IMG/VR virus record: IMGVR_UViG_3300021963_000035
Span: 84,576-148,575 of that record
Reading direction: 5' to 3' (one strand)
Length of the DNA stretch: 64,000 nucleotides
Source of the DNA: a virus
Position numbers and translations under genes: made by a program. Positions 3,001 through 60,825 of this stretch are shown in pieces. Positions within the stretch are counted from its first letter, which is position 1; the number at the start of each line of letters is the position of its first letter. Below the pieces are notes generated by a model. The model did no database searches. It saw only the letters and a program-made list of their open reading frames with translations, and was not told the origin of the DNA.

Positions 3001-5401
3001 TAGTTGTAGAACTACCGGTACAGTTCAGGCTGGTTTAACTGGAATACTTTATCCTAGATCAGACGGATTCTTCGTACATAGACCTTACGACGGTGGTGTT
3101 CAATTAGGTACCGGTGGCCCACAACACGGCGCACAGGCGATTCGTATGAGTAAAAAATACATACGTTACCAGTCTGGTAAGGGAGCTATGTATAACACTG
3201 GTGCATTATTTGCTCCGAGCTATGATCTAAGATCCGCAACGGCTAGTGGATTAACAATAGGAAGTACTATAACATTTGTAGTAGATGATAATGATCACGG
3301 ATTACAAGTTGGCGCTATAATTAATGTAACAGGAATAGTGAGTTTAGGATATAATGGAACATATACAGTTTCAGAAATTATAGATGAAAGAACTTTTAGA
3401 GTTATTACTTCTACAACCTTAAGAACTACTAGCGCAGTGTTGGGAGCTCAAAGTCAGATTTCTTGTAAATTCTGGCACGGATCAGTTGTTCGTTCTGGAC
3501 CGTTTGACGATCAAAATGGTATTTTCTTTGAATATGACGGAACCCAGCTAGCAGTTGTTAAAAGGTCTAGCACTTTCCAGTTAGCAGGTACTGCTTCTAT
3601 AAATGTAGATTCGAACTCATTGATCGGAACCAATACTCGTTTTCTAGATCAACTAAAAGTTGGTGATAGAATCGTTATTAAAGGAATGACTCACGTAGTT
3701 AGCCAGGTTAATAGTCAGACCAACATAGCGGTTACTCCTGATTACAGGGGAACATCAAATGCTGTTAATGCCAAAATCTGTCTAACACAAGATCTTAAGA
3801 TCCCTCAGAGTCAATGGAATCTTGATCGTTGTGACGGAACTGGTCCTAGCAGATATGTCGTAGATGTTACAAAAATGCAGATGATCGGCATACAGTTTAG
3901 CTGGTATGGTGCTGGTTTTATTGATTGGATGTTTAGAGGTCCAAAAGGAGACTACGTATTCTGCCATAGACTAAAAGGCAACAACGTTAATACTGAAGCA
4001 TATATGCGTACTGGTAACTTGCCTGTACGTTATGAAGTTCTTAATGAAGGTGCTAGAACTAGATTAGCCAGTGCAATGACTAACAGTCAAACTACTATGT
4101 CATTAGAAGATGGATCATTCTTCCCTAATGTTGGAACTGTGTATTGTGAAAACGAATTGATTAGTTATAGTGCTAAATCTGGAAATACACTTACAGGGTT
4201 AGTTAGATCGGCTAGCTTAACTAACTTTGCAGCAGGTGCTCAAAGATCTTATACAGCAGGTCCGGCTGCTACTCACGCTGTAAATTCGGGAGTTATTTTA
4301 GCATCAGTTACTAACAGTCCACTGATTAGCCACTGGGGTAGTGCTTACCTAATTGACGGTGGATTTGATAGCGATCGTGGATATCTGTTTAACTATCAGT
4401 TAACATCTTTCAGTGCTACAACCGCTAAACAGTGTGCATTCCTTATTAGGTTAGCTCCTAGTGTTTCTAATGCAGTGCCGGGAGATTTAGGTGAACGTGA
4501 ATTACTTAATCGTTCTCAGTTATTGCTAAAATCAATTGAGGTTATTGGCGGTACTAGCGGCCAGACAATTGTTGTTGAAGGTGTATTAAATCCACAAAAT
4601 TACCCAACTAACAGTGCGGTATTTACAGGTTCAATCAGCGGAACAACATTAACTGTAACAGCAATGAACAGTGGTGTTATCGTTGTAGGTCAAACATTAA
4701 CTGGTGGCGGCAGCCCTTCTATTACCCCAACATTGACAATAACAGCATTGGGTACTGGATCGGGTGGAGTCGGAACATATACTGTTTCGTCTAGCCAAAC
4801 AGTTGGTATTGGAACAATATTTGCAAGTCCATCAACTGTAAACTGGTTTGCCCTGAACAACGCAGCGCAAGGTGGTCTACCGTCGTTCTGTCAAATCGCA
4901 TTGGGATCTGATACAAGTTTTGAAGGTGCTGGAACTACTGTTACCGCAGCATTAACGAGTAACTTGCAAAGTGGTAGAACTACAGCTCAGTTCTCTAATG
5001 CATCGGTGGCAGCTGTACAGGTTGGTTGGACAGCAACATCGGCTGCAAGCATACCATCTGGTACTGCGGTAACTAGAGTTCAGATCGATACTCCAACTTC
5101 GGGCACCACATCTATCACACTTAGCAAAGCGGCAACTGGCACCATAACATCGACTACAAACTTTTCATTTAGTGCTCCGGGATATGCGAACCCAGGTGAA
5201 CAGGTATTTGCGTTCGCTGCTAACACAGGTGACCGTCAGATTCTAGAATTATCAGATTTGAAAGAATTAACTAACTCTGCGGTTGGTGGTAGAGGAGCGT
5301 TCCCGAATGGTCCAGACGTATTGGCTATTAATGCTTTCGTCACTAGCGGTGCAGCAAACACTGTGTCGTTGTTGCTACGTTGGTCAGAAGCTCAAGCTTG
5401 A
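2..5401 (+). CDS. Large virion structural / tail-fibre-like protein (5' truncated) with LamG/ConA-like domain
   Basis: Frame open from window start; G/T/S-rich; LLMHFDG...WYHVAVSR...DEVRIT LamG-like motif; next to neck/tail genes. Confidence 0.75.
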   Translation, partial: NRSYLLAESTAYIQNQISNNVPAFVGFNYDPVKCQRDTGYVIDAYLNDLRYGGNRQTREVVSYYWDGTTPQIGGTRAPEIAVYNWLIGVINTYILTKTLAPSYQFSVVQTTTGSAAEGGASARLTTLNTITVNVITNGLSSLPALVNGVGTLKIPEKIDLENFLLISNVTKNAIMYDFTDPTVGITVDIKASKDENFPTALQGNDGFTVVHFVTDTSTYSSDDEIQIFVENKEQITRPWNFGTDAIERMRVAAPQAMIDADFEYGLQPTKWQAITSNRGYPSTFEIPGSDLIVTDVRTDASTGSNNIGPSLITVTTSSPHFLIAGQPITIKALASTVLGFSRAEGTFIVNTVPTATSFTYYAKSKVGTVDQEVVATSYTQLRRAGFYTGASLGSAAFTVDSPGSSGTITASLNVPSGASIIPFTGTAPPVNAPITSATNITAGTQFTSILGSGGTVTTKTIAENSQIGDNSITIDNVTNVQTGLVVNNGTGSSAAVTSVVGNVVTLNSPITAFRQGISGTYTGISGTSIGTLGTGLSLNLYNSAGTYSLLTFNNQGTGYSVNDVLEISGTSVNVYETTQLLMHFDGGNNSTVFLDETGKTFTLFGNAVVSTTQSVFGGSSFRVNNTLGATPAAGYITTATTNKLRLGISDYTIEFRIRITTGGNDQAILDFRSQAVDNALLIGLTNSNAVYVYSNGAIVAQGGSALALNTWYHVAVSRANGDITIALNGANDNLAGPYTDTNNYNIDVPLRIGADYSGQYGAAAFVDEVRITLGVTRYPTYPFTIPASAFGPDSVGTTSNGAIIRVTGIGPSGEVATIQTLNTGTAPGNSGQEYYYLSPTPIPGQGSGAVFTVRRQSGTYSVVAVTTPGTNYQSNNKIRVLGTALGGATPANDLVIEVGVVLGTGVSTASAFSGTASTTGTSLAFLSSVSLNAVTTGAITSGATITYGSLARILVSLGSAHGLLPGNAISTVITSAGTNHQLAAGPFFVEEVPNPQTLKYSCRTTGTVQAGLTGILYPRSDGFFVHRPYDGGVQLGTGGPQHGAQAIRMSKKYIRYQSGKGAMYNTGALFAPSYDLRSATASGLTIGSTITFVVDDNDHGLQVGAIINVTGIVSLGYNGTYTVSEIIDERTFRVITSTTLRTTSAVLGAQSQISCKFWHGSVVRSGPFDDQNGIFFEYDGTQLAVVKRSSTFQLAGTASINVDSNSLIGTNTRFLDQLKVGDRIVIKGMTHVVSQVNSQTNIAVTPDYRGTSNAVNAKICLTQDLKIPQSQWNLDRCDGTGPSRYVVDVTKMQMIGIQFSWYGAGFIDWMFRGPKGDYVFCHRLKGNNVNTEAYMRTGNLPVRYEVLNEGARTRLASAMTNSQTTMSLEDGSFFPNVGTVYCENELISYSAKSGNTLTGLVRSASLTNFAAGAQRSYTAGPAATHAVNSGVILASVTNSPLISHWGSAYLIDGGFDSDRGYLFNYQLTSFSATTAKQCAFLIRLAPSVSNAVPGDLGERELLNRSQLLLKSIEVIGGTSGQTIVVEGVLNPQNYPTNSAVFTGSISGTTLTVTAMNSGVIVVGQTLTGGGSPSITPTLTITALGTGSGGVGTYTVSSSQTVGIGTIFASPSTVNWFALNNAAQGGLPSFCQIALGSDTSFEGAGTTVTAALTSNLQSGRTTAQFSNASVAAVQVGWTATSAASIPSGTAVTRVQIDTPTSGTTSITLSKAATGTITSTTNFSFSAPGYANPGEQVFAFAANTGDRQILELSDLKELTNSAVGGRGAFPNGPDVLAINAFVTSGAANTVSLLLRWSEAQA

Positions 5402-42063: not shown

Positions 42064-42160
42064 AATTATCTTTTTACCTTTTATACGAATAAGAGAAAAA
42101 TATCTGTATAAGAAGAGATTGAAAGAACTACGTAACAGGGATCCGTTTATCTACAAATGA
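42047..42160 (+). CDS. 37-aa basic peptide coupled to carbamoyltransferase (not in ORF track)
   Basis: MRKLIRIIFLPFIRIREKYLYKKRLKELRNRDPFIYK; stop overlaps next ATG (ATGA). Confidence 0.6.
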   Translation: MRKLIRIIFLPFIRIREKYLYKKRLKELRNRDPFIYK

Positions 42161-43614
42161 TTACTTGGGGAATATCTGCTAACAGCCACGACGCTGCACT
42201 AACCGTTTTCTTAGATGAAAAGATAGCCTTTGCTAGCCATAGTGAACGATTTAGTAAAATAAAAAATGATCCGGATCTAGATCGAGATCTAATAAATTAT
42301 GCGCTGCGATGGGGCGAACCTCAACGAATCTACTGGTACGAAAAACCTTTTAAAAAATCACTAAGGCAATTAATTGCAGGTCAGGGATTCAATTTTGCTG
42401 AAAATAATATTAAAGAATACTTAAGAAAATTTAATATTAAGCAACCGATCACTTATGTTGATCATCATTTAAGTCACGCCGCCGGAGGATACTATACCAG
42501 CGGATGGGACAGTGCTGCAATATTAGTCATTGATGCTATTGGAGAATTTACCACAGCAAGTATGTGGAGAGGACAAGGCAGAGATATAAAACCCTTGTGG
42601 AAAATGAAATATCCTAACAGCATTGGTCTGTTTTATTCCGCAGTTACAAAAGCTGTGGGATTAAAACCAAATCAGGACGAATACATATTAATGGGTATGG
42701 CAGCATACGGTGACCCTTACAAATTCTATGATCATTTCTTTGACAACTACATAAATCTAGATGATCTAACATTTAAGCAGAACTTCCATAGAGGTATCAG
42801 TGATCTCGAAAATTTAATCAAGACAGAAAAAGATAAATTTGATATCGCAGCCACAGCACAATTATTTTATGAAGATATGTTTGATAATCTTTTGTTAGAT
42901 CTGTATATCGAAACGAAAGAACGCAAACTGATTCTTAGCGGAGGCTGTGCATTAAATTGTTCTGCAAATAAACTAGCATTTCAGTGGTTTGATGATGTAT
43001 GGATAATGCCTAACCCGGGAGATGCTGGTAGTAGTTTAGGCTGTGTATTAGCACATAACAAATGGCACACCTATTGGCCCGGACCGTATTTAGGTTACAA
43101 CATACCCGGAGAGTATCCGGTGCAATCTATAATTAAAGAATTAGAAAACAACAAAATATGCGCAGTGGCTAGTGGCCCTGCAGAGTTTGGTCCAAGAGCA
43201 TTGGGCAATCGCAGTCTGTTAGCTGATCCGAGAGATCCCGGCATCAAAGATCGTGTTAATGATATCAAACAACGACAAAAGTTTAGACCATTTGCTCCTG
43301 TAATAATGGAACACTTAGCTGAGAAGTTTTTTGATATGCCTGCTAAAAGTACACCTTACATGCAGTTCACGGCTGTGTGTCGTGAGCCTAGCAAATATCC
43401 TAGTATCATCCACCAGGATGGTACTAGTCGTGTTCAAACAGTTAACAGAGATCAACATCCTGGATTATACGCTGTACTAGAACATATGTGGCATAAACAC
43501 GGTTGTGCAATGTTATTGAACACTAGTTTAAATGTCAAAGATCAACCAATGCTCAACGACTTAGTCGATGCCAAGAATTGGACCAGCCAATACGGTTTAC
43601 CTGTTATATCATAA
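42157..43614 (+). CDS. O-carbamoyltransferase (NodU/CmcH family)
   Basis: HDAA, ERFS..K, HH.SHAA, GGCALN, GDAG, EFGPRALGNRS, RPFAP, LNTS.N. Confidence 0.93.
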   Translation: MITWGISANSHDAALTVFLDEKIAFASHSERFSKIKNDPDLDRDLINYALRWGEPQRIYWYEKPFKKSLRQLIAGQGFNFAENNIKEYLRKFNIKQPITYVDHHLSHAAGGYYTSGWDSAAILVIDAIGEFTTASMWRGQGRDIKPLWKMKYPNSIGLFYSAVTKAVGLKPNQDEYILMGMAAYGDPYKFYDHFFDNYINLDDLTFKQNFHRGISDLENLIKTEKDKFDIAATAQLFYEDMFDNLLLDLYIETKERKLILSGGCALNCSANKLAFQWFDDVWIMPNPGDAGSSLGCVLAHNKWHTYWPGPYLGYNIPGEYPVQSIIKELENNKICAVASGPAEFGPRALGNRSLLADPRDPGIKDRVNDIKQRQKFRPFAPVIMEHLAEKFFDMPAKSTPYMQFTAVCREPSKYPSIIHQDGTSRVQTVNRDQHPGLYAVLEHMWHKHGCAMLLNTSLNVKDQPMLNDLVDAKNWTSQYGLPVIS

Positions 43615-45325: not shown

Positions 45326-46036
45326 ATGTGGCTAAGAGAATTTGATTCAAAATTAGGTATAGTTCGTGTAAACAAAAGCCTCAACCCTAGGATTTGGGAA
45401 GGTGGTGATCTCAAACCTGAAGTAGCAGCTAAACTAAAAGAAATCGCAGAAAAGTTCTATGATTTTATAGGTGTTGAGCTAGACGTTATAGACTATACTA
45501 TCACAGGCAGCAATGCCAACTATACATGGACCGAATACAGTGATCTGGACCTACATCTTATCGTTCCCGGTACGCCCTCGCCGGAACTACGTGAGCTTTT
45601 TAATGCTAAAAAAGCTCTTTGGGCCGAACAACACGAAATAACAATCAAAGGCTTACCTGTAGAAGTTTATGTACAGGGAGAAGATGAACCACATCATTCA
45701 ACTGGTGTATACAGTCTCAAAGACAGCAACTGGTTAACAGAACCCCGCAAAGTCAAACCCAAGGTAGATGATGCTGCTGTACAGGCCAAATACTACAGCG
45801 TTAAACACGATGTTGAAACTGCCATCATAGGCAACGATCTTGAACAATGTCAAAAAATCAAAGACAAAGTAACACAGATGCGCCGAGCAGGTTTAGCCAA
45901 AGCAGGCGAATGGTCAACAGAAAACCTGGTCTTCAAGTTATTGAGAAACCAGGGTCTGATTGATCGTCTTACTGAAAAAATACGTGATCTAGAAGATCAG
46001 GCGCTGAGCCTAGAACAGGCCCAGCAGTTGGATTAA
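45326..46036 (+). CDS. Pol-beta-superfamily nucleotidyltransferase
   Basis: ITGSNANY...SDLDLH...VEVYVQ (GS, DxD, third acid). Confidence 0.8.
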   Translation: MWLREFDSKLGIVRVNKSLNPRIWEGGDLKPEVAAKLKEIAEKFYDFIGVELDVIDYTITGSNANYTWTEYSDLDLHLIVPGTPSPELRELFNAKKALWAEQHEITIKGLPVEVYVQGEDEPHHSTGVYSLKDSNWLTEPRKVKPKVDDAAVQAKYYSVKHDVETAIIGNDLEQCQKIKDKVTQMRRAGLAKAGEWSTENLVFKLLRNQGLIDRLTEKIRDLEDQALSLEQAQQLD

Positions 46037-46731
46037 TCGTTATTCTTTACGCCAAACAATTGCAGCAGATTTAAGAATAGATTGATAAAGTCTAGGTACA
46101 GTGTTAGCGCACCAACGATTTCTACTTTACCGTCGCCTGTGTCTACTGAAACGATTTCACGGATCTGCTGTGTGTCATAAGCAGTAAATCCTAAAAAGAT
46201 CAGGATAGCGATCGCTGAAATAACCATTTGCATCACTGAACTGCCAATGAAAATATTAACGATGCTGGCAATGATGATAGCGATCAAACCCACAAACAAC
46301 AAGCTGCCTAATCCACTAAGGTCTTTCTTGGTAAAGTAACCATAGCCACTCATTACAGCAAATAATATAGCGCCTCCCATGAATGCTGAGAAGATGCTGG
46401 CTGCTGTATAGATCACGAAGATAGTGGCAAAGCTCAAACCCATTAGGGCAGCAAAACCGTGTAGGGCCAACTGTGCCTGTGATTTAGTCAAGCTTTCTAG
46501 TCCAAATGTCAAGGCTAGGATAGCTACCAGCGGTGCAAATATCACCACCCATTTCATTGCACCAGTAAAGAAAAACTGCACCAGTTCTGCGTTGAATCCC
46601 ACAAACATACTGACCAGCATCGAAGTCAAAACTGCTAGTGCCATGTGTCCATAGACACGGCCCATTGCTGAATTGATTTCAGTAGCTGAACGGTAAGTTA
46701 ATGCGTCTGCGCCATAACTTGTTCCAAACAT
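46033..46731 (-). CDS. Bax inhibitor-1 / YccA family membrane protein
   Basis: ~7 TM; TKKDLS, AYDTQ.I, GAL.LYLDFINLF..LL. Confidence 0.9.
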   Translation of the reverse strand: MFGTSYGADALTYRSATEINSAMGRVYGHMALAVLTSMLVSMFVGFNAELVQFFFTGAMKWVVIFAPLVAILALTFGLESLTKSQAQLALHGFAALMGLSFATIFVIYTAASIFSAFMGGAILFAVMSGYGYFTKKDLSGLGSLLFVGLIAIIIASIVNIFIGSSVMQMVISAIAILIFLGFTAYDTQQIREIVSVDTGDGKVEIVGALTLYLDFINLFLNLLQLFGVKNND

Positions 46732-49614: not shown

Positions 49615-49912
49615 ACTAAACCGAGTCCGGGTGGGGGGTATATTGATAAAAGTCTTGCCCAAATGGGGGTACAGGGGTAAAAAAATTAGGGCGCAAAAAA
49701 ATTAAGGTTTAACTACTTTTTCATCATGGTGGTGATTCTGCTACCCCTTGTTGCGTTTTTACAACACTACACACATTACGCCCCCCACCCCCCTCCACCA
49801 TGCCTCACCCTCCCACCCCATCCTTCAGAAAAATCCCAGAATTCCTGAAATTACCTAAAAAACCTAATCTAGCCCTCAGGGGGGTAGGATAACCCTGATC
49901 CCCCCAGGGTCT
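49615..49912. other. Non-coding strand-switch region with G-runs then C-runs (candidate genome end or origin)
   Basis: No ORF; convergent transcription; homopolymer tracts. Confidence 0.45.
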
Positions 49913-49947
49913 TTCGGTGGTGAGAAAGGCGACAGCACAGGGGCTGT

Positions 49948-49982
49948 AAAAAAACACAGTGTTGCAGTAGCGCAACACTGTG
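49948..49982 (-). terminator. Intrinsic terminator built without GG/CC
   Basis: CACAGTGTTGC-N6-GCAACACTGTG followed by T7 on minus strand. Confidence 0.75.
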
Positions 49983-50006
49983 CAAAAATGCAGTGTTGTT
50001 AAAACA

Positions 50007-50588
50007 CTACACAGCAGTAATAGTTACAATGTTGTTAAGCGCAATAGTGCGGCAAATAGCATTGTGTGTAATGTTGTGTGTAACATTGTGCGTTTGTGTG
50101 TTGCGATTAAACAACTGTTGTGCTTGCGCAGGCGTTAAGTATTGTGCAACGTCTTGCTTAGTTGCAAGTGTGTTGTTAATAAAATACATTGTGCTAGTTT
50201 GTGCGTTGTTAAAAAGCGCATACAAGTATTGTGCTAGCGTTTGCTTGTGTTGCACTACGCTATAGCAGTTAGTATGCTCAAAATAGTTTTCCTGCGCTGT
50301 AAACGCTTGCACATTGTTAGCGTTGTTAGTGGGGATAGCACTAGCAGTTTGTTTAACTAGCGTTGTGTATTGTGCGTTACTGTTAGCGTATAGCGTTACT
50401 GTTGCTTGTGTAACTTTTTTAATAGTAACGTCTTTGCATTTTGCGCTTGTTTTTACATTTGTAACATATGTAATTTGTGCGTTTTGCTGTTGTGCGTTGT
50501 TTAACACATTTGCTACGCATAGCGCAGTGATGTGTTGCTGTTGTGCGTGTTGTTGCAGTGCTGTTTGTGCTGTGTGTAGTGTTAGCAT
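50007..50588 (-). CDS. Early protein of extreme composition (Q/T/N/A/H-rich; no G/W, only 2 D, 2 E, 2 P)
   Basis: Own promoter (TTGCAC..TGCTATACT), AAGGA RBS, terminator. Confidence 0.75.
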   Translation of the reverse strand: MLTLHTAQTALQQHAQQQHITALCVANVLNNAQQQNAQITYVTNVKTSAKCKDVTIKKVTQATVTLYANSNAQYTTLVKQTASAIPTNNANNVQAFTAQENYFEHTNCYSVVQHKQTLAQYLYALFNNAQTSTMYFINNTLATKQDVAQYLTPAQAQQLFNRNTQTHNVTHNITHNAICRTIALNNIVTITAV

Positions 50589-50971
50589 TTTGCTAGTCCT
50601 TTTTTTTGTTGCTACACAATGTTGTGTAGTGCAGTTAGTATAGCACCGTTTTGGCTGTGTGCAACAAATAATTTAATAACATATTTTCTCAAGGGTCTTT
50701 CTCGGATACGCCTACCCCGACGCAGCAGCTGAACATGTGTCCACGGGGTTAGGTGCTGTCCCGGCGCATGCAGCTCACATGTGCTGTCGGGGTTGCATGC
50801 CTTTTGTCCCTGTGCAGTGATGTTGTGCAGCAGGATCGCCCTGGGGCATGCGTCGTGCTGGCGTCCATCGAGGATCCTTGCGGGGAGGATAAAAAAAGCC
50901 CGCCGGGTCTATTCACCGGACGGGCCAAAGGGGGAGGAGTAAGCCCCCGAGCACACTACGCAAAAATCAAA

Positions 50972-51402: not shown

Positions 51403-51539
51403 CTTGTGCTCCTTTAATTAAACAGTATCTAGAGTTTAACAGATTTTTGGATCCTGTCAACCAAAATAGGCCGCTGTGTAGCGGGGTCTATGGTGGTGTT
51501 GCACTAGCGCAACAGTGTGCGCTAGTGCTGTGTTACAGT

Positions 51540-51872
51540 TTAAGTAAACAAACGCAATACAATGCTGTTTTGTGTTACTACAATTTGCGCATTGTGTTTT
51601 TTAGCAATTTGCGTTAATGCTAAACAAACGCTTGTTGTGTTGTAAATTGTAACAGTTGCAAAGCGTTTACGAAAATTAGTAAAAATACGCTTTGTAAAAT
51701 ATTGTGCTTGCGCTGCTAATGCTAATGCGCTTAACTGTGCGTGTTGCTGTGCAGTATACAAATTTGCATACTGCGCATTTTGCTGTTTAGCGTGTAGTAT
51801 AGTGCGCAATTTACTGCGTGTGTTTTGTGTGTGCTTTGTGTGCTGCACTTGCACTTGTGTTTGTGTTTGCAT
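51540..51872 (-). CDS. Basic early protein with no D, E, G, P or W
   Basis: Extended -10 TGTTATAGT upstream; downstream hairpin; 110-aa open frame. Confidence 0.65.
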   Translation of the reverse strand: MQTQTQVQVQHTKHTQNTRSKLRTILHAKQQNAQYANLYTAQQHAQLSALALAAQAQYFTKRIFTNFRKRFATVTIYNTTSVCLALTQIAKKHNAQIVVTQNSIVLRLFT

Positions 51873-51976
51873 AGTGTGTGCTGTTTAAGTTGCTGCATAA
51901 AATTATGCAGTAACTACACTATAACACAAATTTAAAAAACTTTAGCGTTTTTAGAAACTTATTTTCCGTAGGGTCT

Positions 51977-52180
51977 TTATTGCCACAACTGCTGCTGCCG
52001 CTGCCAGCATGAGGGATTGCTCTGGGGTGTGCCCTTGCAGTTGAGATTCCTGGATTGACGAGGGGGGACCTGTTCAAACAGTGCGTGGCCAGGCTCCGGA
52101 TCCATGTGGAACCTCTGAGGGGCGCAGCCGGCAAGGATCCCGACGAGGACCCCGATGGTGACCATGGATGAAATCTTCAT
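51977..52180 (-). CDS. Putative lipoprotein
   Basis: Signal peptide with LAGC lipobox. Confidence 0.65.
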   Translation of the reverse strand: MKISSMVTIGVLVGILAGCAPQRFHMDPEPGHALFEQVPPRQSRNLNCKGTPQSNPSCWQRQQQLWQ

Positions 52181-52748: not shown

Positions 52749-52849
52749 AATTGTATTTACTCCAGGTTGCTGCTGCCTTGCATGTAGCGGGGTCTATGTT
52801 CATAGTATAGCACACGACCTGCTCACCTGCAAGTCGTGTGCTGTTGTGT

Positions 52850-53170
52850 TTAAGCCACAGCGTATTGCCGCAATGCTTGCTCAACTGCTATTACTGCTAG
52901 TTTGCTTCGGCCGCCAACGTGCCAGTCTGTAATGTGCTGTTTAGCAAGCCCTGCTTCGCCGCAGTAATTTTTGCCATCTTTGTAATTGTAGATAGTTGCA
53001 ACAACGCCGTTGCTAAATTGCAACTCCCATTCTGCGTCCGTCTTGTAAGCGTCCCCCTCGCTGTGCTCTGGGCCAAACACGTCTACAAGTGTTGCGTAAT
53101 CTACATTAACATAACCCTGCAAGCTAGTGCCGTTTACTGCTTGCCATTTTGCTTGTTTAAAAGTTAGCAT
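52850..53170 (-). CDS. Early hypothetical protein
   Basis: AGGAGCG RBS; TTGACA..TATTAT promoter; L...FG.P, ATIY.YK, WHVGG motif. Confidence 0.8.
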   Translation of the reverse strand: MLTFKQAKWQAVNGTSLQGYVNVDYATLVDVFGPEHSEGDAYKTDAEWELQFSNGVVATIYNYKDGKNYCGEAGLAKQHITDWHVGGRSKLAVIAVEQALRQYAVA

Positions 53171-53235
53171 TTTGCGCTCCTGTTGTTCACTGCGTTATTG
53201 CAGTGTGTTTATAATAGCACCTGTTGTCCAAAATG

Positions 53236-53382
53236 TCAACCACGTAGACCCTGTAGATAACTCTCACGCAGGAGTCGACGCTGTTCTTTGTAGCGTAGCT
53301 GTCTGGCCAAAAAGCCCGGAGATTCAAACCAATCTTGTAGGCAATGACGGGTTTGTCGGCGACGCCTTGCTCTCATCTTCAT
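53236..53382 (-). CDS. 48-aa Arg-rich peptide (not in ORF track)
   Basis: AGGAGCGAAC RBS before ATG; MKMRARRRRQ... Confidence 0.55.
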   Translation of the reverse strand: MKMRARRRRQTRHCLQDWFESPGFLARQLRYKEQRRLLRESYLQGLRG

Positions 53383-55543: not shown

Positions 55544-55971
55544 ACGGGGAGATCTCCCTTGTTGATTCGCCGCAGCAGACAGGTAAGAGTAAAGTCTCGA
55601 TTGACCATGAACTTCTTAGGCCAGTCACGGATCTCCCAATCATCCAAGTTCATGGTCTGGTGACGCTTGACTTTGCCACGAGGACCAACAACCTGGATTT
55701 CCCAAAGTTTGCTGTTTCGGCCAATGCCACCCATCTTGGCCGTCACGACATTGTTCTGATGTTTCACAGTGTAGGTCTTGGTCTTGGGATCGTAGGAATG
55801 TTCATAAGCCATCAACTGATCACTGATGGCCTTCTGTGCATTGCGGATCTGTTGATTGCGTAATCGATTGCCAATGCTGGTCAGATCGTTGTGTGTGAGG
55901 CCGTAGAGTCCTGCCATCATCAGGATCTTCTCTTTGGCTTCCTTCTTGGCCTGTTTCTCTTGCAAGTCCAT
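55540..55971 (-). CDS. Hypothetical protein
   Basis: AAGGAA RBS; promoter upstream. Confidence 0.7.
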   Translation of the reverse strand: MDLQEKQAKKEAKEKILMMAGLYGLTHNDLTSIGNRLRNQQIRNAQKAISDQLMAYEHSYDPKTKTYTVKHQNNVVTAKMGGIGRNSKLWEIQVVGPRGKVKRHQTMNLDDWEIRDWPKKFMVNRDFTLTCLLRRINKGDLPV

Positions 55972-56019
55972 GTCTGTTCCTTTGTGCTAATAATAACAGG
56001 GCCCTAAGGCCCTGTCAAC

Positions 56020-56388
56020 TCAATCAACTACATGCACTTCCTTAAAGCTCTCGTAGCCGTATTTCTTTTCCCACGCGGCAATAAAGTCCCCGTCTACGTC
56101 TAAGCTAACGTAGTTGTCTCCCTGCATGCCCTGCTCGCTGTAGTCTGCTTCCGCAAGGCCCTGTTCTGCGAGGAATGCGTTAAGCTCTACTAAAAAGTTG
56201 CTGTCTGTGTAAATTAGTCCGTCTTCGTTAACGTCCCAATCGTCTGTGTTAAAATACACGCACAGCTCGCCAAAGTCTTTGTCGTCTACAACATAGCCCA
56301 AGTCTATGCCTGTAATACGCACTGCCTTAGACACTTTGCTCCAGTAGCCGTCGCCAGCAGTGTTAAAAGTTGCTCTCACTGTTTGCAT
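56020..56388 (-). CDS. Acidic early protein lacking Pro
   Basis: AGGAGCGAA RBS; own promoter. Confidence 0.8.
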   Translation of the reverse strand: MQTVRATFNTAGDGYWSKVSKAVRITGIDLGYVVDDKDFGELCVYFNTDDWDVNEDGLIYTDSNFLVELNAFLAEQGLAEADYSEQGMQGDNYVSLDVDGDFIAAWEKKYGYESFKEVHVVD

Positions 56389-56455
56389 TGTTTCGCTCCT
56401 GTGTGTTAATGTTCAAATAGTATAACAGGGCCCTAAGGCCCTGTCTACCAAAATA

Positions 56456-56818
56456 TTAAATACCCTGGAACTTTGAAAGGACTTCTTGTGCGCTTTCATC
56501 TAGCATAACTGCGTCCATAGCCTTGCGCTTCTCAATGTCAAGCTCTGCGCGGTATGCTTCCATAGCCAGCTTCTTTGCTTCCATTGCGGGCCAAACTACA
56601 TCTTGCGGGTTGAGGTAAGGACCTGTATAATCTTCCTTTTCCTCTTTAAGTGTGATCTCGCCTGCTTTAATTGCTGCGAACACTTGTCCCCAGGTAGGCT
56701 GTTGAGGACGACCGCTAGGACCAAAAAGTTCTACAGCCTTAGACTGTAGTTTATCTGCAACGATCTCCTCCAAACGGCGGATGAAGTAAGAACGTTGTTC
56801 TGTGGACATTGCTTGCAT
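56456..56818 (-). CDS. Hypothetical protein
   Basis: AGGAGCG RBS; promoter. Confidence 0.75.
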   Translation of the reverse strand: MQAMSTEQRSYFIRRLEEIVADKLQSKAVELFGPSGRPQQPTWGQVFAAIKAGEITLKEEKEDYTGPYLNPQDVVWPAMEAKKLAMEAYRAELDIEKRKAMDAVMLDESAQEVLSKFQGI

Positions 56819-59054: not shown

Positions 59055-59596
59055 TTGTGTCCAATCTTCATATAACGGGTAAATCCCCATGTAGGGTATT
59101 TAAACGATTTCTCGCCCGTATATAAAGATTGTGACATAGGCCAACAGTTGCTGAACTCGTCTATGCTAGTGTAGCAGTGTACGTGATCATCATGGGGCAT
59201 GTCATTGCCCTGTAGCGCGATCAGTGTCCCGTTGGGAATGCGATCGTACCACTCGCGGGAATCAATGTGTTCCACGCTGGTGTTGATGATTAGATCAGGA
59301 GCAGTAGTCCAGGTCAGCTGATTAACATCTGCGGTTACTGCTGTAAACTCACCCTGCCAGTGCCACAGACGGTTCACGTGTATGGCCGTGCTTTCGCAGC
59401 TAGGATCTATGTCGTAGCTGGTAACATGTTGTATGGGTAGAGTGTTCTGTGTGCGCAACAGCAGGTTGGTAGTACAATACCAGCCCGCAAGTACATGTAT
59501 GCGTAAGGGTTGCAGCGGGGTCAATACCTGTGCTAGTGTCTCCCCGAGCCAGAGCTTGGATCCTATCTGGCCTGAGGAGAAACTATCCCAATTCAC
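59051..59596 (-). CDS. SAM-dependent methyltransferase-like protein
   Basis: VLAGWY, SYDIDP, DLIINTS.EH motifs. Confidence 0.65.
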   Translation of the reverse strand: MNWDSFSSGQIGSKLWLGETLAQVLTPLQPLRIHVLAGWYCTTNLLLRTQNTLPIQHVTSYDIDPSCESTAIHVNRLWHWQGEFTAVTADVNQLTWTTAPDLIINTSVEHIDSREWYDRIPNGTLIALQGNDMPHDDHVHCYTSIDEFSNCWPMSQSLYTGEKSFKYPTWGFTRYMKIGHK

Positions 59597-60825
59597 CCTT
59601 CTAGATTCTCGTAGATAACAGTCTGTCCAAAGGGTGCTTCTGCAGAAGTATTGCCCTTGACGATGAACAGGGTTTCACAGTATTCTTCGTCACCCCAACC
59701 ACCGCAGGGATAACCATCTGTGAACATAATGAACTTCTTCGGACGGAGATCACGCTCTTTCATGTATTCCCAATTGACTTCGAAGTCTGTGCCGCCGCCA
59801 CCTTGAGGTTCATAGCTCAACAATGCGTCACCGTCGTCGTGCGTGAAGCGTTGTGGGTTATAGATGTCTGTGTCAAAGCACCAGATGTCAATAGCGTAGT
59901 CCTGATACTGATCCATGATGCCTTTAACCTCTGACAGGAATGCAGTTGCATCCTCAGTGCCAATTGAACCTGACATATCAATGCCGATGGCCACGTCAAT
60001 GGTCTCATCGTTCTTCATTCCAGGAAGGATAGCGCCACTGTGCCAGCTCTTGCGATTAGGACGGGTGAATGCGTAGTCATTACGCACGATGCTCTGGATG
60101 TTCATCTGCAGAACATCACGCCAGTTCATCTTAGGTTCAGTCAAGTCCTTGAGCAGACGTTGCACACCTGCGGGCACCTTGCCAGCACCTGCGGCCGCGG
60201 CACTCTGGATCATTGCTTCTTTGATCTCGTCACGCAGTTTCTCTGCTTCTTCCTTGGTTAGTGTAGGCTTTGAACTTACACCCTGGCCACTCTTGCCTTG
60301 TTTATCGCCGCCTGCACCAGGACCCTCTTCTTCGTTGATATGTTCATCAAGCAGGTCGCCCAGTTGCTTGAGCAGTTGGCTCATAGGAATCTTCTCAGCC
60401 TGCTCCCAGAGCTTGTCGTAGATCTCTTCCCAGGCCATGCCACGATACTTATTGTCCTGGCAGATCTTGACTTCAGTAATACGCTCGCCGATGCGATCAT
60501 CTACGAGGATCTGATTCACAGCGTAGTCCTGCGCGATGTTGCTGAGCTGACGATCACGGCTACCAACACGGCCAAAGTGATCAAAGACACAATGCAGGAT
60601 CTCGTGTGCGAACAAGAACTCCAGCTTCTTGGTGTTGAGCTTCTTGACAAACTCAGTGTTGTAAAAGAAATTACGCCCGTCAGTTGCGGCAGTAGGGCAC
60701 CAGTCGTCTGCACAACGGATCTGCATACGGGTGGCCATGTTGCCAAAGAAGGGAGCCTTGAGTAGCAGTCCTACACGGGCTGTGATTAACTTTTCTTCGA
60801 TTGCTTTGTCTACGGTAACGGGCAT
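59593..60825 (-). CDS. Metallopeptidase-like (HExxH) plus vWA domain protein (DUF2201-type)
   Basis: TAATDG, HEILH; DMSGS MIDAS, GGGT.F, FTDG. Confidence 0.85.
   Translation of the reverse strand: MPVTVDKAIEEKLITARVGLLLKAPFFGNMATRMQIRCADDWCPTAATDGRNFFYNTEFVKKLNTKKLEFLFAHEILHCVFDHFGRVGSRDRQLSNIAQDYAVNQILVDDRIGERITEVKICQDNKYRGMAWEEIYDKLWEQAEKIPMSQLLKQLGDLLDEHINEEEGPGAGGDKQGKSGQGVSSKPTLTKEEAEKLRDEIKEAMIQSAAAAGAGKVPAGVQRLLKDLTEPKMNWRDVLQMNIQSIVRNDYAFTRPNRKSWHSGAILPGMKNDETIDVAIGIDMSGSIGTEDATAFLSEVKGIMDQYQDYAIDIWCFDTDIYNPQRFTHDDGDALLSYEPQGGGGTDFEVNWEYMKERDLRPKKFIMFTDGYPCGGWGDEEYCETLFIVKGNTSAEAPFGQTVIYENLEG

Follow-up and report, generated by a model that had tools for sequence, protein, structure and literature searches.

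Gene cassettes without YC and GR dinucleotides in a T4-related giant phage: selection on nucleic acid at the expense of protein composition

Introduction

Why would a phage write a complete gene, from promoter to 3' hairpin, almost without GA, GG, TC or CC, when the encoded protein thereby forgoes five amino acids? The question is raised by a 457-nt stretch from an uncultured giant phage related to T4, which has a genome of about 350 kb and carries a T4-type large terminase and a tail sheath; the stretch lies among the small genes of a variable region. The virus contig at hand measures 148,575 bp (42% complete according to CheckV), and coordinates below refer to its last 64 kb, a 64,000-nt stretch that we call the window. 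A first-pass annotation had read this locus as a transcription unit in which 5'-GR (GA and GG) and its complement 5'-YC (TC and CC) are avoided on both strands through a constraint on nucleic acid, and had proposed a modification-proof, first-expressed gene. Here we ask how far the avoidance extends, on which strand it acts, what it costs the proteins, and which agent could have imposed it.

Results

Two Cassettes Lack Four Dinucleotides on Both Strands

Full island 2 (Table 1) contains a single GA and no GG, TC or CC in its 457 nt, where 83.5 such steps are expected from its own base composition and 85 from the genome-wide rate; across 20,000 mononucleotide shuffles the count never falls below 57 (P(≤1) ~4e-35), bearing out the scarcity first noted for this stretch. 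The sole exception, a GA at 51671, arises where the message strand passes from one codon to the next at TTT|CGT. A dinucleotide scan over the whole 148,575-bp contig, the check suggested in the first-pass annotation, finds both-strand depletion in full islands 1 and 2 only, and two further stretches, which we call one-strand islands, are without GA and GG on the plus strand only. All four depleted stretches of the 148.6 kb fall inside one 6.5-kb block of small minus-strand genes, and their neighbours on that strand show no depletion, their content being normal or even enriched. The purine content of the full islands is not raised (C 0.227, G 0.175), total C is elevated in the islands (0.20-0.23 versus 0.18) with every C placed in AC and GC, TT is enriched at an observed/expected ratio of 1.47, and NCA and GCA codons outnumber NCT.

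The noncoding parts, the codon junctions and the synonymous sites of the cassettes all obey the ban, and the constraint therefore acts on nucleic acid, as had been claimed from island 2. Codon or tRNA effects were considered as a cause and rejected, because codon junctions obey the rule too. Exclusion of the four dinucleotides leaves the basic 110-aa product of island 2, P0002 (K7, R6, H5), without Asp, Glu, Gly, Trp and Pro, an absence that its translation confirms.

Island 2 reads as a complete cassette, and the features first described for it, an extended -10 element with no recognisable -35, a CDS without a Shine-Dalgarno sequence and a rule-obeying 3' stem, are all found again. The putative -10 element, which our two-hexamer promoter scan missed, is kept at the orthologous locus of a syntenic 351-kb metagenome contig (L086), and transcription would start near 51911. 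Since the leader has neither GG nor GA, P0002 is left without a Shine-Dalgarno sequence. The leader hairpin is missing from the L086 orthologue owing to a 39-nt deletion; there the ATG lies only 6 nt after the -10 element (L086:9950-10010), suggesting a nearly leaderless mRNA. Just outside island 2, the terminator-like hairpin breaks the rule and holds both YC and GR (CC and GG).

The octamer GGGTCTWT brackets both full islands and marks the start of one one-strand island, with plus-strand copies at 49907, 50693, 50905, 51484, 51971, 52790 and 54619. Seven of the eight copies in the window thus lie on one strand within 4.7 kb, ~3 being expected in the whole window, and the octamer may be a cassette border or recombination motif. 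T4 late promoters (TATAAATA), also searched for, occur at chance-level frequency in the window.

Table 1. Features of the depleted cassettes in the window (promoters, hairpins and border motifs were read from the sequence)
Feature	Position	Strand	Remarks
Full island 1	49942-50687	-	Same layout as island 2; leakier: 10 YC + 8 GR on the message strand
Island 1 putative promoter, TTGCAC-16-TATACT	50664-50637	-	
P0001 CDS, 193 aa	50007-50588	-	Preceded by a 5' hairpin and AAGGA
Island 1 putative terminator	49954-49983	-	
Full island 2	51497-51953	-	Complete cassette: promoter, 5' hairpin, CDS, 3' hairpin
Putative extended -10, TGtTATAGT	51926-51918	-	No recognisable -35
Predicted leader hairpin, CTGCATAA/TTATGCAG	51910-51893	-	
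P0002 CDS, 110 aa	51872-51540	-	ATG at 51872; no Shine-Dalgarno sequence
Predicted 3' hairpin, 11-bp stem GCACTAGCGCA/TGCGCTAGTGC	51528-51501	-	Four dinucleotides absent; no U-run
Intrinsic terminator-like hairpin, CCGCTACACAGCGG + CCTATTTTGG	51484-51462	-	T-run; just outside island 2
Border motif GGGTCTAT	51484-51491	+	3' edge of cassette
Border motif GGGTCTTT	51971-51978	+	5' edge of cassette
One-strand island	52796-53275	-	Message strand almost without TC/CC; GA/GG retained
CDS, 106 aa	52850-53170	-	Putative promoter TTGACA-17-TATTAT at 53239-53211
One-strand island	55956-56465	-	CDS 56020-56388, 122 aa, 6 YC

The Island Genes Are Genuine and Recur in Independent Assemblies

The cassette recurs, with its gene order preserved, in four independent assemblies, two of them NCBI metagenome contigs (351 kb, JACCDU010065255.1 with 351,065 bp, and 101 kb) and two of them Logan run assemblies, and the chimeric or contaminant insert that had been raised as a concern is not what this locus represents. 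P0001 and P0002 are real genes under strong purifying selection: dN/dS amounts to 0.098 for P0002 and its L086 orthologue (dS about 1.3) and to 0.197 for P0001 and its orthologue on the 351-kb relative (dS about 0.56), the P0001 ORF exceeds Markov chance (221 codons versus 89 +/- 22), and we find 42 homologues of P0001 and homologues of P0002 at 28-85% identity. Assemblies do tend to break here, nine of the 23 IMG/VR contigs with a P0001 homologue (L005, L007, L011, L014, L015, L018, L020, L022 and L023) ending ~3.3 kb or less upstream of it, and this could hint at a chimera, a contaminant or noncoding low-complexity DNA; given the four assemblies, the homologues in 23 contigs and dN/dS values of 0.1-0.2, we assign such an artefact a negligible probability.

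Three of the nine contigs start inside the P0001 homologue and none ends within 3 kb downstream. These contig ends represent either assembly breaks at repeated cassette borders or a physical genome end.

AlphaFold2 models of both proteins are confident (pLDDT 90 for P0001 and 84 for P0002) despite the lack of D, E, G, W and P, such that the cassette proteins appear as natural folds built without these residues. Neither protein, searched together with eight neighbouring ones, belongs to a Pfam or PHROGs family, and an ESM Atlas search gave no usable match. For the P0001 model Foldseek returned no match and a VIA-wide search returned noise-level small Sm/SH3-like barrels, including the WYL domain of PafBC (Z 6.9), the Rho inhibitor YaeO (Z 5.8) and Hfq (Z 5.7); the top matches of the P0002 model in a fold search are generic alpha/beta sandwiches, likewise at noise level (Z about 7). 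At the nucleotide level, megablast of the islands and a 12-kb core block against GenBank phages gave no match.

The Primary Rule Is a Message-Strand YC Ban Limited to Transcription Units

The bias is kept in homologues. At 13 of 23 IMG/VR loci with a P0001 homologue the gene has 0-3% forbidden steps, compared with 15-25% in its flanks, and depleted stretches at these loci reach 3-6 kb (up to 5.9 kb); the first reading thus survives its own check on homologues, in which normal dinucleotide content would have counted against it. When 538 ORFs are classified by strand, 37 are without both YC and GR, 27 are without message-strand YC only, many of these with exactly zero YC and normal GR, and eight are without GR only. 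Of these eight, the two that were inspected turn out to be spurious ORFs that run antisense to acidic genes on the opposite strand. The primary rule in this phage group is thus the absence of TC and CC from the message strand. About 40% of YC-free genes retain GA and GG, and the one-strand islands of the window keep GA at an observed/expected ratio of 0.78 while YC is missing. A discrete subclass, including both full islands, is also without GA and GG because the YC step has been purged from the complementary strand too. The symmetric GR/YC ban originally proposed therefore stands for the subclass to which island 2 belongs and fails as the general rule.

Counted over 999 ORFs, the density of message-strand YC peaks at 6-7 per 100 nt, and 26 ORFs form a second, isolated spike at exactly 0; among the YC-poor ORFs GR is bimodal, at 0-2 or 8-16 per 100 nt. 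The ban stops at the limits of the transcription unit: YC-rich hairpins and motifs return in the short spacers between cassettes, immediately past one terminator and immediately before the next promoter. Counts of both steps in the DNA that precedes predicted start sites rested on noisy promoter calls, and in packed arrays the DNA upstream of a promoter belongs to the preceding cassette.

Rho alone, to our knowledge, has a documented preference for 5'-YC on nascent RNA. The cassettes could encode Rho-blind transcripts, YC-free messages that cannot load Rho and so finish even before ribosomes shield them. The step avoided on the message strand is exactly the 5'-YC ligand of Rho's primary binding site (PMC12360218), the ban is message-strand-specific, limited to transcription units and extends over untranslated leaders, and Rho avoidance shapes coding-strand composition elsewhere (PMC13323073). 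Moreover, the most YC-rich 120 nt of the 148.6-kb contig (49786-49905 on the plus strand, 40 YC) are intergenic at a convergent junction directly beside island 1 (C 41% and G 11% over 49770-49900) and, as read from their composition, look like a Rho loading site on plus-strand transcripts. Both here and in published Rho avoidance, selection on message-strand nucleotides overrides the choice of codons and amino acids (PMC13323073; PMC12360218). The published pattern is, however, a genome-wide, graded purine bias (PMC13323073), whereas the depletion described here is absolute, confined to a few cassettes, accompanied by raised C and mirrored on the other strand in the strict subclass. Of the features expected from Rho, a YC-depleted message strand including its untranslated parts is present, and graded depletion with purine richness or with C below G is absent; in the full islands C exceeds G. 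Rho loads only where several YC fall within about 80 nt; depletion below a threshold would therefore suffice, yet we observe a spike at exactly zero, bought with the loss of proline. Furthermore, Rho leaves the mirror-image removal of GA and GG unexplained, the cassettes are short and closed by intrinsic terminators, and Rho is a near-universal housekeeping factor, whereas the rule changes even among close relatives. Overall, we consider evasion of Rho a rather unlikely cause of the ban.

Genes in one-strand islands of related loci (L013:1585-1998, 2150-2449 and 3434-3850; L004:4834-5358) encode small, very acidic proteins (D+E about 17%), which by their composition recall DNA-mimic anti-restriction proteins; several of these genes are paralogues arranged in tandem, and their promoter and terminator modules are almost the same.

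Selection Rather than Mutation Shaped the Cassettes

Comparison with relatives shows that purifying selection on nucleic acid, not mutation or artefact, shaped the cassettes. Islands are absent altogether from G002, a complete relative of 364 kb, and the orthologues of the CDS at 56020-56388 hold 25 YC in G002, 6 in the window and 0 in G004, at similar GR counts (58, 58 and 50, respectively); changes relative to the G002 orthologue include the codon replacements TTC to TTT and TCA to AGC, and Ala, Val or Gly in place of Pro. At aligned columns of the P0001 family, Glu in normal homologues gives way in depleted ones to Thr, Gln or Ala, Asp to Asn, Ala or Gln, Gly to Asn, Ser or Ala, Pro to Ala, and TCN-coded Ser to AGY-coded Ser, Asn or Ala. 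The earlier proposal that the protein pays for a nucleic-acid rule is upheld by these replacements, which differ from the products of deamination (E to K, P to L, S to F).

YC is the preferred context of known DNA cytosine deaminases. A YC-specific enzyme of this type (APOBEC- or DddA-like) could in principle have erased YC and GR without any selection, and its action on both strands would yield the mirror symmetry of the full islands. Such a mutational footprint is nonetheless highly improbable: the replacements are conservative (E to Q or T rather than K, P to A rather than L or S, TCN-Ser to AGY-Ser), NCA and GCA codons exceed NCT, C is raised rather than lowered, and the ORFs are intact under strong purifying selection.

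Among guanines, those followed by a purine oxidise most readily, and TC and CC are hot spots of UV (6-4) photoproducts. Oxidation and UV chemistry thus single out the very steps that are avoided, and genes that are transcribed first, while the virion DNA is still unrepaired, might be proofed against damage, with the G/C runs that bracket the islands possibly acting as sinks for oxidative damage. However, with so few lesions in any one gene, selection would fall far short of the strength needed to cost a protein five amino acids. The islands are enriched in TT, where most UV dimers form, and the template strand of the one-strand islands retains TC and CC; we therefore hold damage-proofing to be very unlikely. 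Cisplatin-like adduct chemistry, which targets AG and not GA, was rejected.

The agent of selection differs over short evolutionary distances. In the P0001 tree depleted and normal states are interleaved, with at least three changes needed, and a relative with 83% amino-acid identity is leakier, with 9 YC and 9 GR compared with 1 and 0.

Searches for a DNA Mark of the Phage's Own

Strand polarity, both-strand clearance and lineage differences would all be covered if the phage modified G (or the paired C) at GR/YC throughout its genome. Host RNA polymerase would then read injected, fully marked DNA, early genes would keep their template strand free of sites, and the strict class and the promoters would clear both strands; one blocking lesion would stop a transcript, whence selection site by site. 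Dinucleotide-scale motifs of this kind exist, as the DpdA system of phage CAjan reads G at this scale and installs preQ0 at GA and GGC (PMC7544227). Unlike in CAjan, dpdA and queC were not found in the related records and trait-carrying contigs searched, a trait-carrying contig being one with depleted cassettes. We know of no modification-site-free region described for CAjan.

In particular, PF01702 (TGT/DpdA) has no match in 11 related records (G000-G005 and G010-G014), which include about 1 Mb of trait-carrying contigs, the controls having matched in 14 of 14 genomes and the trait-carrying contigs being fragments that are 13-45% complete. PF06508 (QueC) has no match at E ≤ 0.01 in the trait-carrying G000, G001, G003 and G005, one scored candidate in G005 failing this limit, and its sole match, a marginal one, falls in the trait-free G002. 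PF00145 (C5-methyltransferase) has no match in five records, and PF10715 (RegB) none in the trait-carrying contigs, in a search run without a positive control. PF00383 (dCMP deaminase) matches only in G002, and PF00303 (thymidylate synthase family) in G002 and G005. No gene that tracks the trait emerged when the gene content of trait-carrying contigs was set against that of trait-free ones, a result that reflects the fragmentary state of the trait-carrying contigs; together, these fragments touch most 20-kb bins of the complete relative. In addition, palindromes with GR/YC steps are no more spared from avoidance than in a trait-free related genome, and nondepleted early genes sit between the islands.

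A 485-aa carbamoyltransferase (Pfam Carbam_trans_N/C) is encoded at 42157-43614 on the plus strand, between the primase and DnaB-like helicase genes. The family has been shown to turn 5hmC into 5-carbamoyloxymethyl-cytosine in phage DNA (PMC8670742), the published enzyme having no context preference, and the gene suggests that the phage may carry hypermodified cytosine, which lends a mark of its own some plausibility. The enzyme is present in G005 and L086, and absent from G002 and from the replication modules of G001 and G006; with these two trait-carrying records lacking it and the published enzyme indifferent to context, it leaves the YC rule unexplained. The dpdA-type guanine mark proposed in the first-pass annotation thus finds no support in the records searched, and we judge any own-mark explanation to be about as improbable as evasion of Rho.

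Discussion

The depleted cassettes imply a strong agent that acts site by site, and its specificity matches none of the described agents with which we compared it. Our tentative preference, held with well under even confidence, is an enzyme that strikes single-stranded 5'-YC sites one at a time; we favor it because Rho fits poorly (zero counts, C above G, the mirror purge and variation among relatives) and the mark gained no support. The target would be nucleic acid rendered single-stranded through transcription, that is, mRNA or the displaced nontemplate DNA strand, and the candidates are dinucleotide-specific nucleases, ADP-ribosyltransferases and deaminases, which might come from a host defence that varies between strains or from the host shut-off of the phage itself. 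Each YC would be a potential target, and if a single strike ruins a transcript, selection would act site by site, consistent with the spike at exactly zero YC. Site-free transcripts would keep yielding protein while all else is attacked, and the cassette products are probably take-over or counter-defence proteins. The sigma-70-like promoters, our one indication of timing, suggest that these genes are expressed early, in keeping with the first-expressed role originally proposed. Given the normal content of adjoining same-strand genes, the agent would need to be neutralised before those genes are needed.

Two observations speak against the single-strand enzyme. An agent that attacks mRNA exclusively leaves the mirror purge of GR unexplained, unless there are also antisense transcripts, both DNA strands become accessible or a second agent is at work; if the enzyme exists, the both-strand-cleared subclass means that both strands of those cassettes are exposed or transcribed. 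Furthermore, the hairpin stems of the cassettes obey the rule, although double-stranded RNA should escape a single-strand-specific enzyme. The phage fragments yielded no candidate enzyme, and we know of no enzyme with pure YC specificity for RNA. MazF reportedly leaves ACA-less mRNAs translatable while it cuts other mRNA, which is the principle of single-protein production. That case involves a trinucleotide and engineered genes, whereas the ban described here is natural, concerns a dinucleotide and forces a 15-amino-acid alphabet.

The CmdTAC system provides a further parallel, as its toxin CmdT ADP-ribosylates GA in the single-stranded mRNA of T-even phages (bioRxiv 10.1101/2024.02.24.581662). 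CmdT is a dinucleotide-specific anti-phage enzyme, a single strike of which blocks translation, and GA is absent from the mRNA of island 2; the general rule here is, however, YC, the one-strand islands keep most of their GA, and CmdT itself is triggered late, by the capsid protein. Restriction-site avoidance in early phage DNA shares local motif avoidance until counter-defence proteins are made, but concerns duplex sites of 4-8 bp (PMC12455610), whereas the present avoidance concerns a strand-specific dinucleotide confined to transcription units. The classical signature of restriction-site avoidance is absent, the depletion being a local, mostly strand-specific dinucleotide effect with palindrome classes that behave alike. 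McrBC-type restriction, which targets R-mC, a context that the islands retain, and avoidance of CRISPR PAMs, for which shielding only part of a genome would be useless, were both rejected.

In their layout the islands resemble PeSLs, promoter/stem-loop cassettes around variable small ORFs in the hyperplastic regions of T4-like phages (PMC2839356; PMC4122927), with which they share a predicted early-type promoter of their own, a stem-loop, a small ORF without known function and repeated border motifs; the islands have no sequence identity to published PeSLs. PeSLs are shuffled between relatives, which accounts for the movement of cassettes but not for their dinucleotide content, and no report ascribes a compositional ban to PeSLs.

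Avoidance of motifs is an established strategy, and a dinucleotide-level form of it that is limited to transcription units and recodes proteins is new; our literature search found no publication that describes such islands. The avoided word has two letters and the ban is absolute, an arms-race-type footprint that strips five amino acids from proteins that are still predicted to fold. Possibly, though we would not wager on it, a host or giant-phage enzyme new to science acts at bare YC, and the genes needed first answer it with 12 dinucleotides and 15 amino acids. Discovery of the agent could bring to light a defence or host shut-off of a new kind, directed at nucleic acid, or else show Rho or DNA marks in a role new to early phage expression.

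Additional Gene Content

In the structural region of the contig, outside the window (G000:C1:25410-38768, minus strand), a single ORF encodes 4,452 amino acids and has homologues at 27-35% identity in G002, G003, G005 and G009. Two minus-strand genes of the window are unusual phage cargo, one encoding a Bax1-I membrane protein of the BI-1 family (46033-46731, E 1.6e-51) and the other a DUF2201 metallopeptidase/VWA protein (59593-60825); at locus L086, a gene with weak AAA-family matches adjoins the DUF2201 gene.
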